Assembly: GCA_964482335.1 (NCBI GenBank)
Contig: CAYZXA010000001.1
Span: 24,983 to 88,982, forward strand
Origin: an uncultured Candidatus Saccharibacteria bacterium
GTDB taxonomy: Bacteria; Patescibacteriota; Minisyncoccia; Minisyncoccales; MHMH01
Length of the DNA: 64,000 nt
Direction of reading: 5' to 3'
In this document: positions 4,321-61,700 of the stretch, in pieces
Layout of the letters: every line of letters begins with the position of its first letter
How positions within the stretch are numbered: position 1 is the first letter of the stretch
The notes under the pieces: generated by a model
The model's input: only the letters and a program-made list of their open reading frames with translations
What the model was told of the DNA's origin: nothing
Databases searched by the model: none
Made by a program: the position numbers and the translations under genes

Positions 4321-5159
4321 TAATTGCATCGGGAAAGGGCGGAGTAGGGAAGTCAATGTTGACTTCGGCTTTGGCAATGCTTTTTACCAAAACCAAAAAG
4401 ATAGTGGCGGTGGATTGTGATGCTGACGCTCCGAACTTGGCAATTTGGCTAGGCGGAGTTAAAAAGTGGGATAAAATTTTACCAGTTTCTACTTTAGCTA
4501 AACCAGAAATTGATTATAAAAAATGTAATAGCTGTGGTTTATGTGTTAAGAATTGTCGTTTTGATGCTTTAAAAATGGTAAATGGCAAACCAAAGCTGAA
4601 CCCATTTTTATGTGAAGGTTGTGGAGCTTGTGAAGCAATTTGTCCTCAAAAAGCAATAAAATTAAAGCCAGTTCAGAATGGTGAGATCAAAGTTAAAAAA
4701 ACCAAATATGGTTTTCCTTTAGTCTCCGGAAACCTTCATCCAGGAGAAACAGGCTCTGGCAAGGTAGTCAGCGAAATTAAAAGAGAAGCAGAGAAATTCA
4801 AACATAATCTGATGATCATTGATTCAGCGCCAGGTACTGGTTGTCCAGTAATTGCCTCTTTGCAGGGAGCTGATTTTGCTATTTTAATTACTGAGCCTAC
4901 TCCCTCGGGATTTTCTGACTTAAAAAGAGTTTTAAAAGTAGTCAATCATTTTAATATTCCCTGGGGTCTAGTAATAAATAAATGGGATATTAATTCTCAA
5001 TTAAGCGGTAAAATGAAGAGATGGACCAAAAAGAAATTTTTGGGTAAAATATCTTATGATAAAGAAATATTTAAAGCTATCTCTAATTTAACTCCAATAA
5101 TAGAAACTGACTTAAAAGTTAAAGACGAGATTGAAAAGATTTTTAAAAAATTATGGTAA
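4305..5159 (+). CDS. MinD/ParA-family P-loop ATPase with inserted 2x[4Fe-4S] ferredoxin domain
   Basis: Deviant Walker A SGKGGVGKS plus CNSCGLCVKNC and CEGCGACEAICP cluster motifs (COG1149-like). Confidence 0.75.
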   Translation: MAKKIVIASGKGGVGKSMLTSALAMLFTKTKKIVAVDCDADAPNLAIWLGGVKKWDKILPVSTLAKPEIDYKKCNSCGLCVKNCRFDALKMVNGKPKLNPFLCEGCGACEAICPQKAIKLKPVQNGEIKVKKTKYGFPLVSGNLHPGETGSGKVVSEIKREAEKFKHNLMIIDSAPGTGCPVIASLQGADFAILITEPTPSGFSDLKRVLKVVNHFNIPWGLVINKWDINSQLSGKMKRWTKKKFLGKISYDKEIFKAISNLTPIIETDLKVKDEIEKIFKKLW

Positions 5160-57034: not shown

Positions 57035-57475
57035 ATGAATGATTCTGTTGATAAAAAAGGAGTTTTGAAGGCAATGTTTCTGGCTATTTTAATTGCTTTT
57101 TTAGCCATTGGCATTTTAGCCTGGCAATACCAACGCATAGAGAAAGAGCGGTTGCCAGCACTTGAGGAGAAAATTGAGAAAAGATCAACTGAGGATGTTT
57201 TAGATAAGTTCATGCAAATGAGGATTGATAAAAATGAAAAAGGAGCCTTGCGCTATCTGACAGAGGGCGCTGTCCAGCAAAGGGATCAGGCAGAGTTTAG
57301 CTTGCTGGACAACTTTGAAAGCTATGAGATTTTACAAAGTGAGAAAGTGGATGAAGAGAAATACCGCTATGTAGTTAAAATATATGAAGAAGGAATGGGT
57401 GATTTTATTGAAGTAATTACCTTAATTAAAATCTTAGACAATTACTATATTGACTCAGTGCAAATCGCCGGCTAA
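57035..57475 (+). CDS. membrane-anchored protein, unknown function
   Basis: One TM helix (AMFLAILIAFLAIGILAW) followed by a soluble domain. Confidence 0.45.
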   Translation: MNDSVDKKGVLKAMFLAILIAFLAIGILAWQYQRIEKERLPALEEKIEKRSTEDVLDKFMQMRIDKNEKGALRYLTEGAVQQRDQAEFSLLDNFESYEILQSEKVDEEKYRYVVKIYEEGMGDFIEVITLIKILDNYYIDSVQIAG

Positions 57476-58280: not shown

Positions 58281-58703
58281 ATGGCAAAAAAAGTTAAAGC
58301 TATTATTAAATTACAGATTCAAGCTGGCGGGGCAACGCCTGCTCCTCCAGTGGGGCCGGCTTTGGCTCAGCACGGTTTGAATATTGGCGAGTTTTGTCAA
58401 AAGTTCAACGATGCCACTAAACAGAACCAGGGATTTAAGATTCCAGTTGAAATTACGGTGTATGAAGACAGAACATATAATTTTAGATTAAAGCAGCCCC
58501 CAGCCGCTGAGCTTTTGAAAAAAGCAGCTGGCATTGAGAAGGGCTCTGGAGAACCTAACAAGACCAAGGTTGCTAAGATTTCCCGAGCCCAATTACGCCA
58601 GATTGCTGAAAAGAAGATGGAAGACTTGAACGCTGAAGACATTGAAAGCGCTATGAGGATCATTGAGGGCACAGCCCGTAATATGGGGATTGAAGTGCAG
58701 TAG
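58281..58703 (+). CDS. rplK: 50S ribosomal protein L11
   Basis: [27 protein letters not shown]. Confidence 0.96.
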
Positions 58704-58725
58704 CCTTTTGTTGGGGAAATTATAT

Positions 58726-59076
58726 ATGCCAATAATAATTGTTAAAGATTCAATAAAGCGAGAAGAATTGAAACGTGTTGCCAAAAAGCAGTTCGGTGAC
58801 TTAGTAAAGGCAGTGGTAGACATAGAACAGGGGATTATGGCAGTTGGTGGAGAACTTCACTCTGATGAGGAGGTCTTTCTTATGGAGCAAGAAAACTCAA
58901 AGCGAGAGTATACCTGGGGCATTAGTCTTTATCCTGAGAAAACGGGTGATGACTGGATTGAGCTTGATTCTGTGATTAACCTAAAACCTTCTTTTGGTAA
59001 TCGCTCTCGAGATGTGGATAATCCCATAGTTCGAGAAAAAATTAGAAAAATTGTAGAAAAACTCGTATCAAGATGA
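58726..59076 (+). CDS. DUF5674-like protein
   Basis: FGDLVKAVVDIEQGIMAVGGELHSDEE...WGISLYPEK...INLKPSFGNRSR matches my memory of DUF5674. Confidence 0.5.
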   Translation: MPIIIVKDSIKREELKRVAKKQFGDLVKAVVDIEQGIMAVGGELHSDEEVFLMEQENSKREYTWGISLYPEKTGDDWIELDSVINLKPSFGNRSRDVDNPIVREKIRKIVEKLVSR

Positions 59077-59414
59077 ATAAACTTTATCACAAAGAATTGG
59101 CTGAAGGTAGATGGTTTCAGCTTTCTTTAGCAGAGCAATTGGCAAATATTGGTAGCGAGGTGAGTCGGGCACGCAAATGGCAGGGAAAAGACGAAAATAT
59201 TTTTTGGGGCGCAGTTGACAGAGCCCTTGAACTTTTTGATTTGACTCTTGCGGATCCTCGGTGGAGAAAGGGTCGTTTGCGGGAAATTGCAAGGGTACGA
59301 GAAATATTTTGCGATGCTCTTTTTGGAGGAAAGAATTATCAAAGTTCCCTTAAAGATCTTGAACGATATTTTCTGCTTTTTGCGTTTCTTGTTCGGCAAC
59401 GATTGCTAGTTTGA
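59073..59414 (+). CDS. 113-aa helical protein, unknown function
   Basis: ATGA-coupled to the previous gene. W/R-rich helices, no motif recognised. Confidence 0.45.
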   Translation: MNKLYHKELAEGRWFQLSLAEQLANIGSEVSRARKWQGKDENIFWGAVDRALELFDLTLADPRWRKGRLREIARVREIFCDALFGGKNYQSSLKDLERYFLLFAFLVRQRLLV

Positions 59415-59459
59415 AGTTTTGAAGGCGCTGCCAAAAATATTGGGATTGAAATTAAATAA
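59415..59459 (+). pseudogene. displaced duplicate of the rplK 3' end (last 13 L11 codons plus stop)
   Basis: Reads S-FEGAAKNIGIEIK*, compared with the [13 protein letters not shown] of the live rplK (58662-58703). It follows the cassette stop codon in the same frame. Confidence 0.65.
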
Positions 59460-59481
59460 ATTTTAAGATATTATTAATCAT

Positions 59482-60060
59482 ATGATTCTTTCTGATAAAG
59501 ACATTAAGAAACATATTGCTGAAGGCAAGATAAAGATTAATCCAGAACCGAATTTTGATGAACAGTTAGGTCCTTGCTCTTTAGATTTACACTTAGGCAA
59601 CATCTTTAAAGTTTTCAAACCTTCTCAATATCCTTATTTAGACTTAAAGAGGAACGTCCATTTTGAGGAATTGATGGAGGAGGTAAGAATAGAAGATGGT
59701 GCTCCATTTATTTTACAGCCCAAAGATTTTATTTTAGCTACGACCAAAGAAGAGTTTATTTTACCCGACAATATAATGGCCAGACTCGATGGCAGGTCTT
59801 CCTTAGGCAGATTAGGCATTGTTGTTCATTCAACCGCTGCCAGATTTGATCCAGGATGGCAGGGCAACGCAGTTATGGAACTTGGCAATTTAGGCATTAT
59901 GCCCGTTGTTTTGTATTCTGGCATGCGTATTTGCGCTTTAACCTTTGAAACGCTTTCTAGCCCCTGCGACATTACTTATTTAAAAAAGAAAGGTCAGAAA
60001 TATGGAAAACAGACATCTCCGCGAGCCAGTAAAATTACTGAAGAATTTAACAAGCAATAA
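59482..60060 (+). CDS. dcd: dCTP deaminase (possibly the bifunctional dCTP deaminase/dUTPase type)
   Basis: MILSDKDI, GPCSLDLHLG, RLDGRSSLGRLG and NAVMELGN motifs. Confidence 0.88.
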   Translation: MILSDKDIKKHIAEGKIKINPEPNFDEQLGPCSLDLHLGNIFKVFKPSQYPYLDLKRNVHFEELMEEVRIEDGAPFILQPKDFILATTKEEFILPDNIMARLDGRSSLGRLGIVVHSTAARFDPGWQGNAVMELGNLGIMPVVLYSGMRICALTFETLSSPCDITYLKKKGQKYGKQTSPRASKITEEFNKQ

Positions 60061-60062
60061 TT

Positions 60063-60917
60063 ATGGAGGATTTAAAGAGTTGGCCTTCGATTGAAGGAAG
60101 ATATAAAAAGGGAAATCCACAATCTCCGGTGGCTATTTGTACCAATGCCACGGTTGAAGGAATTGAACCTGATATGGAAAAAGTAGCTTTGATCGGCAAA
60201 TGTGTTACTGAAAATATTGGTATTGAGAAAATCATCCAGAACATTGTTGCTAATCCATACATCAGGTTTTTGATTTTTTGTGGCAAAGTCTCCAAGGGGC
60301 ATTTTGTCAGCCAAGCTTTCCTTTCTTTAAAAAAAAACGGTATAGATAAAGAGAAAAGAATTATTGGGGCTCGGGGGAACACCCCTTTTTTGAAAGGGAT
60401 TGATGAAGCATTAATAGAAAGGTTTCGTCAACAGGTTGAGATGGTTGATTTAATGCCAGAACAAGATAGGGAGAAAATAATGAAAAAAGTAGACGATTGC
60501 TTAAGGCGAAATCCCGGTCCTTTTTCTGGAGAACCTGTTAAGGTTCAGGAAGTTGAAACAATCCAGGCTAAGTCTTGTCCTGACTGGATTGCTGACCCCA
60601 AAGGATTTTTTGTTATTTCCATAGACCGTAACCTAAACAAGATAATCGTTGAGCATTTTCAGAATAATAAACTTACCAAAAAGATAATTGGTAATTCAGC
60701 TGAAGAAATTTCAAAAACTATCAGCTACCTTGATTTGATTGGCGATTTTGAACAGACAAAAGAACATACCATGTATTTAGCCAGAGAACTTCAAAAAGCA
60801 GAATTTGCCTTGAAAAATAATTTAGATTATGAGCAAGATAGTGAGTTACAAATAAAAAAGGTCAAACAAGAAGATAAACAAAAAAAATCAGCCAATGAAG
60901 ATGATTGGTTCGATTAA
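60063..60917 (+). CDS. MtrA-like (tetrahydromethanopterin S-methyltransferase subunit A family) N-domain fused to a DUF4346-like C-domain
   Basis: WP..[28 protein letters not shown]...GH and G..PFL......ERFR.Q all parallel archaeal MtrA, including the His that ligates the corrinoid in MtrA. Confidence 0.6.
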   Translation: [284 protein letters not shown]

Positions 60918-60923
60918 AAAACT

Positions 60924-61700
60924 ATGTACGAAACAAAAATCGTTGAAGCTAAAACTTTAGGGGAGGCATGGGAAAAATCCTGTATTTTAATGATGCAGGA
61001 AGGTCATACTCGTTATGTCCAAGCACCTGAATATCAGATAGAGACAAAGGACCTTCCCTTGTTGATTAAAGTCGCAGATCCTTTTTCTGAACCAAGATTG
61101 AGCGATAAAGTCAATACAACAAAAGGATTAGCGGATGAATACACTAAGAAATTCTTACATGGTTCGGGTAAAGAGAACGAGAACAGTTTTGATTATACCT
61201 ATTTTTCTCGTTTGCGCTGCTACCCTGATTGTAAGGTCAGGGCCTGGCTGCCAAGCGTTACTGAGACTGATGAAGAATTGGCCGAAGAAGTTAAAAAAAT
61301 CTCTCCTGACGGCAAATGCGTTGTTCAGCGCATCGACCAGGTGGAGAAAGCCATCAATATCCTTAAAAAGGATCCAACCCGCCGCACAGTGGTTATGCAT
61401 ACCTGGGTGCCCTTCCGAGACTTAATGAAATTCGGGCCAAAGAGAGGAGACACTTCTTCGCCTTGCGTGCTTTTATTTTATCCTCAGTTGGTTGATGAGA
61501 AGCTCCATATGTTTGTCGTTATGAAGACCAATGATTTGTACAACGCTTGGCCAGAAAACGCTTATGCTTTCAGTGCTTTGCAAAAATACATGGCAGATGA
61601 GCTGAGAGTGGGGACTGGTACCTATACTCATTTTTCTGTCAGTATGCATATTTACAAAGATATGTACAATGAGGTCAAGAAAAAGTTCAATTTGCAATAG
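60924..61700 (+). CDS. thyA: divergent (archaeal-type) thymidylate synthase ThyA homolog
   Basis: The catalytic Cys context SPCVLLFYPQ aligns with PPCHxxxQF. MKTNDLYNAWPENAYAFSAL aligns with QRSxDxxLGxPFNIASYALL. Confidence 0.65.
   Translation: MYETKIVEAKTLGEAWEKSCILMMQEGHTRYVQAPEYQIETKDLPLLIKVADPFSEPRLSDKVNTTKGLADEYTKKFLHGSGKENENSFDYTYFSRLRCYPDCKVRAWLPSVTETDEELAEEVKKISPDGKCVVQRIDQVEKAINILKKDPTRRTVVMHTWVPFRDLMKFGPKRGDTSSPCVLLFYPQLVDEKLHMFVVMKTNDLYNAWPENAYAFSALQKYMADELRVGTGTYTHFSVSMHIYKDMYNEVKKKFNLQ

Follow-up and report, generated by a model that had tools for sequence, protein, structure and literature searches.

The locus described here is the 3' end of rplK, the gene for ribosomal protein L11, in a 64-kb stretch of contig CAYZXA010000001.1 (assembly GCA_964482335.1), which we call the window. 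Behind the intact, 'live' rplK lie two small genes (geneA and geneB, together the A-B cassette), and behind these a second, diverged copy of the last codons of rplK, referred to below as the relic. The window belongs to a Patescibacteria genome, with Nealsonbacteria MAGs as its nearest public records. The local gene order is gyrB, an open reading frame (ORF) of 146 aa, secE, nusG, rplK, geneA, geneB, dcd, genes for an MtrA-like/pterin-binding protein and a divergent thymidylate synthase, deoC and gatB. Coordinates are collected in Table 1. Comparison loci from other genomes and metagenome contigs carry labels from L001 to L182; all of these sequences come from metagenome assemblies, and the arrangement of tail, cassette and relic was found again in independent samples and with independent assemblers.

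Table 1. Features around the A-B cassette, in window coordinates
Feature	Position	Strand	Remarks
rplK (ribosomal protein L11), live gene	58281-58703	+	Pfam Ribosomal_L11_N and Ribosomal_L11
Live L11 tail	58662-58703	+	ATT GAG GGC ACA GCC CGT AAT ATG GGG ATT GAA GTG CAG TAG
Spacer from rplK stop to geneA, 22 nt	58704-58725	+	Motif GGGAAATTATAT then ATG, kept 3' of rplK in cassette carriers L013 and L094
geneA, DUF5674 protein, 116 aa	58726-59076	+	Pfam DUF5674, E=1.3e-31
geneB, four-helix-bundle protein, 113 aa	59073-59414	+	No Pfam family; ATGA overlap with geneA at 59073-59076
Relic L11 tail, left 24 nt	59418-59441	+	TTT GAA GGC GCT GCC AAA AAT ATT
Relic L11 tail, right 18 nt	59442-59459	+	GGG ATT GAA ATT AAA TAA; equals the live rplK end of L181/L182 save a window-specific GGA to GGG
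Native rplK-dcd spacer, 22 nt	59460-59481	+	19/22 against the post-rplK spacer of L181/L182
dcd (dCTP deaminase)	59482-60060	+	Pfam DCD; gene directly 3' of rplK in empty-site genomes

The relic (59418-59459) encodes FEGAAKNIGIEIK followed by a stop codon, and it ends 22 nt ahead of dcd. Only 22 nt of non-coding DNA separate the cassette from the live rplK and only 3 nt separate it from the relic. The live and relic tails are identical at 29 of 42 nt, and at 14 of 15 in a conserved core (AATATNGGGATTGAA); an independent repeat search of the window returned the same pair as a 32-nt direct repeat with 78% identity. No in-register similarity was found on extending the alignment upstream of 58662 and 59418. 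As a null model, 300 first-order Markov shuffles of the window were scanned in six frames. The 13-residue relic peptide has an ungapped BLOSUM62 score of 43 against the live tail, whereas the shuffles reach at most 35 at any position and 29 when a following stop codon is obligatory (0/300 reach 43 either way). In the real window, the relic is the top non-self match to the live tail. The second L11 tail is confirmed as real and above chance, as a first-pass annotation of the window had claimed; its coordinates and sequences for both tails matched exactly on re-checking, and the similarity it described is significant against shuffled controls. The same annotation pointed out that the relic is in frame with the stop codon of geneB. 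This is true in the window but coincidental, because the relics of L094, L098 and L121 stand in other frame relations.

The junction between geneB and the relic (TGAAGT/TTTGAAGG) has no single-copy microhomology. The idea that the stop and last codons of geneB were built from the relic (TTGAAG resembling ATG AAG) was rejected, since geneB of L094 has the same 3' end (ending in CGATTGCTAACTTGAAGT) with no relic behind it.

Relatives without the cassette were found by a protein search with L11, in which two L11 sequences are 95% identical to that of the window. In the corresponding loci, L181 and L182, nusG is 94-96% identical to the window at the nucleotide level, and rplK ends in IEGTAKNMGIEIK and a stop codon, followed by a spacer of the same 22-nt length (attttaatatatcattaaccat) and the ATG of dcd. 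The relic peptide departs from IEGTAKNMGIEIK by three disabling substitutions, with Phe for Ile, Ala for Thr and Ile for Met, and the spacer agrees with the one behind the relic at 22 of 22 positions in L090 and 19 of 22 in the window. A short interval of 0-11 nt between the rplK stop codon and dcd is also seen in L003, L020, L019, L024, L055 and L071. The first-pass annotation had envisaged empty-site alleles of this kind, and L181 and L182 supply them. By comparison with these alleles, the right 18 nt of the relic are the resident rplK end left in place, and the spacer at 58704-58725, which is missing from empty sites, appears to be part of the imported unit.

Among cassette carriers, 20 contigs from several JGI and SRA samples encode an identical L11, and all of them have both cassette and relic. 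So does the sister lineage L090-L093 (about 95% nucleotide identity), in which the relic differs by one base. An A-B pair also lies behind rplK in L013, with a MazG gene in tandem, and in L136, in both cases without a relic. In L094, L095, L097 and L172 the order is rplK, geneA, geneB and MazG, and then a second L11 tail (FEGTIHNMRIEIE and a stop codon) located 5 nt ahead of a dCMP deaminase gene. Because L005 has the dCMP deaminase gene directly behind rplK, at a distance of 19 nt, the relic of L094 is in the position of a native tail. A second L11 tail was found in none of 80 species-representative rplK loci.

These alleles could also be read in the opposite direction, with the cassette ancestral and lost from L181 and L182 by recombination between the tail copies. 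Direct repeats around a cassette do favour deletion, the cassette is also found behind rplK in L013, L094 and L136, and parsimony does not fix the direction in a star phylogeny of four lineages; the neighbour-joining tree from the gyrB C-terminus, secE, nusG and L11 is star-like, with support only for the grouping of the window with L090 (100%) and of these two with L005 (73%). However, an excision product joining the left part of the live tail to the right part of the relic would be expected to have CGY (Arg) or AAA AAT ATT (Lys-Asn-Ile), and L181 and L182 have the intact consensus AAG AAT ATG; many more distant relatives also have rplK directly followed by dcd. Loss is therefore judged improbable. 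Gain is the likelier polarity by sequence logic, not by a resolved tree. Reversing the polarity alters the direction of the event only, and the junction inside the tail, described below, stands either way.

To dissect the two tails, we compared four genomes, the window and L090 (with cassette) and L181 and L182 (empty), and counted the sites at which the window equals L090 but differs from L181 and L182, themselves equal. Such sites are rare in nusG (1/546) and more frequent in rplK, with 8/360 in nt 1-360 (p=0.003 against nusG) and 7/63 in nt 361-423; the 22-nt spacer has none and the first 260 nt of dcd have six. The excess along rplK relative to nusG is what a long imported tract would leave, and not a point exchange. 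Within the live tail, nt 1-15 equal the native tail of L181 and L182, and the differences common to the window and L090 are at positions 16, 17, 37, 39 and 42 only: the changes begin at nt 16 with CGY for AAG and take in the very end of the gene, with CAG TAG for AAA TAA. The relic has the converse pattern. Six of its first 24 nt (positions 1, 6, 10, 12, 18 and 24) have shared differences from the native tail, compared with 0/40 in its remaining 18 nt plus the spacer (Fisher p=0.0018), and against a flanking background of 1.3% the binomial probability of 6/24 is P=4e-7. Although the terminal branches are long, only 1 of the 42 relic sites has changed between the window and L090, so that decay after the event is a very unlikely source of the six shared differences.

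Judging from these site patterns, the live tail consists of 15 native nt followed by foreign sequence (nt 16 onward), and the relic of 24 foreign-like nt followed by native sequence, which runs from nt 25 to the end of the spacer. Because both tails are chimeric in this way, the comparison places a recombination junction inside the L11 tail. The switch point in the window is in or beside the 14/15-nt conserved core, and strict reciprocity of the tails would require relic positions 18 and 24 to have mutated later. The left 24 nt of the relic had diverged before the junction formed, either brought in with the cassette or heavily decayed. The live rplK is probably an imported allele, at least from gene nt 397 onward. 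Thus the earlier proposal, that a replacement end lies upstream and the original end was displaced downstream, is supported by the empty-site alleles but needs amendment: the relic is chimeric, and its last 18 nt alone are demonstrably resident.

The cassette is also found beside duplicated gene ends elsewhere, at rpmG and rpsI in related bacteria. At rpmG, which encodes ribosomal protein L33, the layout is tRNA-Tyr, tRNA-Thr, rpmG, geneA, geneB, a second L33 tail and tRNA-Trp (L098, L099, L100, L102, L103/L104 and L109), with the L33 relics adjoining tRNA-Trp. Three L33 tails are present in L102 and L110, and between them are different cassettes (DUF3830, MltG, MazG and A-B). A relic of the form GATTTGAAAAA occurs at seven rpmG loci with different cassettes on its left. 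At rpsI, which encodes ribosomal protein S9, the end of geneB continues in frame into the tail APQWQKR and its stop codon, the two being joined at an Ala-Arg-Arg common to both (L121).

Tail duplications also bracket inserts without A-B. At rpmG these are MltG, DUF3830, HD-domain protein and MazG cassettes, and further tail duplicates without A-B were found at gyrB (L020 and L034), secA (L036) and gatB (L028). A scan of 5,586 ORF tails, covering all loci collected, gave 20 strong downstream duplicates versus 5 in the upstream control. Of the distinct A-B loci whose flanks are usable, about one in five has a gene-end duplication, and most A-B loci have none; among rplK-anchored loci, there are only four cases of tail duplication without the cassette. 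The length of the relic depends on the site, with about 8 codons at rpsI, 13 at rplK, 14 or 20 at rpmG and 30-31 at gyrB (24 to 93 nt across sites), and the target sequences are unrelated. A common TTGA/TTTGA insertion motif at relic starts was considered for rplK and rpmG and dropped, as it fails at rpsI (L121) and in a second class of L33 relic.

That second class, in L105 and L110, starts with KWCRKH and is 14 codons long. In these two different genomes, a hairpin-forming remnant of 30-60 nt ending in CGAAGGAC lies between two L33 tails (L105 3576-3650; L110 2790-2870). In L102, an unpaired, diverged second DUF5674 gene (4336-4731; 131 aa, 53% identical) lies behind geneB, immediately ahead of the third L33 tail. 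At gyrB (L020 4933-5125 and L034 4702-4906), a structured insert of 100-135 nt is followed by a second copy of the last 30-31 codons; between the two copies, 18-21 nt are changed but no more than 1-3 residues. At its left end, each insert repeats the first 15-17 nt of the relic in inverted orientation, and both inserts contain the motifs GAAACCGNNGGTGTCT and GAGCGAAGCGA. An Rfam search of ten loci, with a permissive threshold added for the L020 insert, found tRNAs only and no match to an insert. In L036 (88-1050), the secA tail (PCGSGKKYKKCHGK and a stop codon) is repeated 560 nt downstream, around an ORF of 199 aa, and in L028 (9960-10665) the gatB tail is repeated 557 nt downstream around a small ORF, with 45 of 48 nt identical. 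In L133 (3590-3650 and 4340-4400), the duplicated segment is a gene head instead of a tail: the first 17 codons of the gene 3' of geneB (beginning MSNHIHEDKIKDLEIKA) are found again 5' of geneA (MSQYISEEKIQELEIKA).

The kinds of differences between live and relic copies bear on where the copies came from. In eight well-preserved pairs, the pooled proportion of synonymous sites that differ (pS) is about 0.8, near saturation, and that of nonsynonymous sites (pN) is 0.04, giving pN/pS of 0.05; an example is the 30-codon gyrB pair of L020, in which 21 of 93 nt but only one residue are different. Because the differences are nearly all synonymous, the two copies in these eight pairs are of different lineage origin and not in-situ duplicates. 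A nearest-neighbour analysis of the L33 and gyrB tails named no donors, the sequences being too short and saturated. Older pairs (the window, L094 and L103) have pN/pS of 0.27-0.54, as expected of decaying relics.

The alternative is an in-situ duplication, as a transposase target-site duplication or by replication slippage, with the downstream copy decaying neutrally from then on. One copy evolving neutrally since such a duplication predicts pN/pS of about 0.5, and the window pair by itself, at 0.54, is what would be predicted. The eight other pairs reject this model, however (binomial P=3e-21), and the duplicated length varies from site to site as given above. The window locus lacks both a transposase and terminal inverted repeats, and the relic differences common to two lineages that have since diverged by 4% are all in the left 24 nt, with one later change. 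Taken together, these observations make duplication in place scarcely credible.

The first-pass annotation also needs correcting on the cassette itself, which is no isolated cargo: A-B is a very widespread, conserved gene pair. Homologues number >2,600 for geneB and >2,500 for geneA, typically with 65-90% identity (a range from the best 120 of >2,500 homologues). Searching with geneB gave 80 metagenome loci, in which the two genes are nearly always adjacent and the pair is kept in about 75, in widely varying surroundings; it is often accompanied by genes of nucleotide house-cleaning and by pyrimidine genes (MazG, HD/YfbR-like, NUDIX, dcd and dCMP deaminase). Two small, co-directional genes overlapping at ATGA are the arrangement of toxin-antitoxin modules, and the pair may possibly be an addiction module; Pfam and family-library searches gave no match of geneA or geneB to a known toxin or antitoxin family. 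Searches of NCBIfam, PADLOC, PHROGs and PDB sequences also found no match for either protein, and neither has a fold match. The geneA product has an alpha/beta fold without a solved structural relative, and the literature searched does not mention DUF5674. An interpretation of geneB as a degenerate MazG was rejected (hhalign probability 0.3%), and a phage link was dropped, since geneB is encoded by just one of 2.9 million viral contigs. In one JGI contig (3300028161; L084 position 2755, corresponding to window 59340) a geneB codon is changed from CAA to TAA, truncating the protein to 89 aa, while about 1 kb is otherwise identical save one silent change; from this allele, geneB is apparently dispensable in nature.

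Could the cassette direct its own insertion? GeneA, geneB or both might form a new homing or insertion system that cuts or recombines the 3' ends of conserved genes and spreads with a protective replacement end. The pair is indeed found at the 3' ends of three ribosomal protein genes with duplicated tails, about one in five of its usable loci has the duplication (against only four cases without the cassette in the rplK-anchored loci), its proteins are unusually conserved across many genomic contexts, and a geneA without structural relatives leaves room for an undescribed activity. On the other hand, family and fold searches detected no nuclease (LAGLIDADG, GIY-YIG, HNH or other), recombinase or DNA-binding family or fold in either protein, the same tail duplications surround inserts without A-B at rpmG, gyrB, secA and gatB, most A-B loci are not duplicated, and a natural nonsense allele of geneB exists. 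We regard a mobility function of the cassette proteins as quite unlikely. A bolder formulation, which we also think rather unlikely, is that A-B is an autonomous, integrase-free selfish element promoting its own insertion at the 3' ends of rplK, rpmG and rpsI and travelling with a replacement end, or, more modestly, that tail-bracketed cassettes are a general undescribed vehicle of gene flow between deeply diverged lineages of the candidate phyla radiation. If A-B were such an autonomous element, it would represent a new class of homing or recombination-directing cassette.

Site-specific integration has more in its favour. The locus would then be a small non-autonomous element or its remnant, inserted by a tyrosine or serine recombinase encoded elsewhere, with the att core in the L11 tail, the live tail as attL (native on the left, element on the right) and the relic as attR (the reverse). 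Direct repeats of the target gene's 3' end are present (the 42-nt pair), the mosaics of the two tails nearly mirror each other and may have been exchanged at tail nt 13-15, and different lineages reuse the same relic starts (TTT GAR GGC at rplK in the window and L094, and the rpmG form shared by seven loci). A precedent is available in streptococci, where integrative and conjugative elements (ICEs), integrative and mobilizable elements (IMEs) and their decayed derivatives use tyrosine integrases to enter the 3' ends of rpsI, rpmG, rplL, lysS and guaA (Ambroset et al. 2016, PMC4701971). As in those elements, the targets are conserved gene ends (rpmG and rpsI among them), a replacement end is supplied and direct repeats of the tail flank the insert.

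Several observations do not fit this model. No integrase, transposase or nuclease was found by Pfam searches in the cassette or within 5 to 10 kb on either side at the rplK and rpmG sites, and no excisionase, relaxase or conjugation gene was found. The statement in the first-pass annotation that the locus lacks an integrase, transposase or tRNA holds in the Pfam results and flank annotation. Unlike ICEs and IMEs, the insert is about 0.7 kb, and its ends, where non-coding DNA amounts to 22 nt and 3 nt, leave no room for arm-type sites. The relic length varies with the site and the target sequences are unrelated, L133 duplicates a gene head, and foreign markers lie to the left of the putative core (rplK nt 372 and 381, plus 8 sites further upstream). 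A 'decayed integrative element', one of three origins offered by the first-pass annotation, is a possible reading: the near-reciprocal tails resemble attL and attR, but the integrase is missing and non-coding DNA is scarce. Site-specific integration by a recombinase in trans is possible, though unlikely. Since the defining recombinase gene is absent, the cassette is outside the class of integrase-borne elements.

It is moderately probable, from the comparisons above, that the cassette was imported by homologous recombination anchored in the conserved gene end. This was another of the origins offered in the first-pass annotation (a cassette moved by homologous recombination between lineages), and it is favoured by the additional shared differences along rplK and by purifying selection on the tail pairs elsewhere. 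In the ancestor, rplK would have been directly followed by dcd, as it still is in L181 and L182. DNA would then have been taken up from a related Patescibacteria lineage with an A-B cassette already behind its rplK. A left exchange in or upstream of rplK would give the live gene the donor's 3' end and stop codon and would account for the foreign sites shared along its length. On the right, the exchange would have fallen within the last 42 nt of rplK, in or beside AAT ATG GGR ATT GAA, so that the resident gene end was not replaced but pushed downstream, with its own spacer and dcd still attached. The cassette most likely brought the left part of the relic with it, as an older displaced tail; the donor's old tail behind the cassette would have provided the right-hand homology, making the new relic a hybrid. 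We infer RecA-type recombination of DNA that had been taken up, by a linear double exchange and not by integration of a circle through a single exchange.

A cassette bracketed by two copies of a gene end would carry its own homology arms and could be transferred to any genome with that gene. The first relic at each site probably came from an illegitimate or microhomology join, as at L121 with its in-frame Ala-Arg-Arg. With spacers of 0-22 nt, a redundant resident gene end may be almost the sole place where a join is harmless, which would explain why relics are seen at all.

Some findings weigh against import by homologous recombination. The near-reciprocal mosaic of the tails is equally expected of a single site-specific or Campbell-type exchange at tail nt 13-15. 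The right-hand homology of about 15-40 nt is a poor RecA substrate. The pN/pS of the window pair alone does not separate the models. A mosaic test of rplK against the distant carriers L094, L013 and L136 gave no donor-specific match, with all three about 71-75% identical at the nucleotide level. In the window and in L094, the relic begins with TTT at the same codon, which requires either that the left part of the relic was inherited in common or that the site is a preferred one; outside that start codon, their left parts are 16/24 identical. Finally, DNA uptake and recombination in these organisms are assumed.

The closest parallel to import anchored in a gene end is found at Rhs, contact-dependent inhibition (CDI) and type VI secretion system (T6SS) effector loci, where C-terminal displacement and arrays of orphan ends have been attributed to a proposed homology-facilitated illegitimate recombination (Kirchberger et al. 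2017, PMC5361080; citing Jackson et al. 2009). There, as here, incoming DNA is anchored in the conserved upstream part of a gene and contributes a new 3' end and cargo, while the resident 3' end is kept downstream as a fragment. Repeated events build arrays, to which the three L33 tails of L102 and L110 correspond. Three features of homology-anchored displacement are seen in our loci as well: an anchor gene with an imported tract, a resident segment beside its native neighbour, and copies from different lineages. The differences are that the displaced end here belongs to an essential housekeeping gene and its replacement has the same function, so that nothing is diversified; that the displaced tail is apparently a second homology arm; that the cargo is an unrelated two-gene cassette and not a toxin/immunity pair; and that the hosts are Patescibacteria.

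Free-standing homing endonuclease genes at the 3' ends of fungal mitochondrial genes offer another parallel for the arrangement of the ends. In mitochondrial atp6 of the fungus Allomyces (Paquin, Laforest and Lang 1994), such a gene reportedly sits at the 3' end, with a foreign C-terminus before it and the displaced original C-terminus after it. The order of gene, foreign C-terminus, ORF(s) and displaced native C-terminus is the same as at rplK, and the C-termini likewise come from different lineages. In contrast to that case, no ORF of the cassette is fused to the host gene, and neither geneA nor geneB has a nuclease domain or fold. Transposons and insertion sequences are marked by a transposase, terminal inverted repeats and a target-site duplication of fixed length; here there is no transposase, a repeat search found no terminal inverted repeats at the cassette ends, and the duplicated length is not fixed. 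On these sequence features, the cassette is neither a homing endonuclease gene nor a transposon. An integron cassette would have an attC site and IntI with attI nearby; the flanks showed no integrase, and no search aimed at attC was made.

Patescibacteria have tiny, compact genomes with few recognisable mobile elements, and gene exchange among them is poorly understood. What is new in the present loci is that the targets are the ends of essential housekeeping genes in this group, that the displaced tail apparently serves as a homology arm, and that the recurrent passenger is a highly conserved gene pair without an assigned function. The rplK locus can be used as a worked example, with cassette-bearing and empty alleles both in hand, of a conserved ribosomal protein gene end as a landing site. 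A stranded gene tail (of rplK, rpmG, rpsI, gyrB, secA or gatB) is also a searchable marker of recent recombination between lineages, and DUF5674 with its partner, as the most frequent passenger, is a concrete target for functional work.

A few further features of the region were observed. A sigma-70-like TTGAAA-17-TATTAT at 59446-59474 extends from the end of the relic into the spacer ahead of dcd, although such matches occur at chance level in the region; if functional, it would give a selective reason for keeping the right part of the relic intact. The 146-aa ORF between gyrB and secE (57035-57475) has no family match and is present in some relatives only (L005, L012, L013, L090 and L094), making its slot a further variable position in the conserved gyrB-secE-nusG-rplK block. 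On the other side, 3' of dcd (60063-61700), two proteins are encoded, one MtrA-like and containing a pterin-binding DUF4346 domain, the other a divergent relative of thymidylate synthase. In L005 (7603-9036) these two are fused into a single protein of 477 aa, and L094 has ThyX and thymidylate kinase in that place; the dTMP-synthesis block behind rplK is highly variable in the clade. The gene for ribosomal protein L1, rplA, is not 3' of rplK in the window, and a tblastn search with Escherichia coli L1 across the whole 64 kb gave no match. It is likewise missing beside rplK in about 40 Patescibacteria rplK loci (L001-L039), and it adjoins rplK in L041, L042, L049, L050, L058, L062 and L069 and in all loci from outside the candidate phyla radiation.

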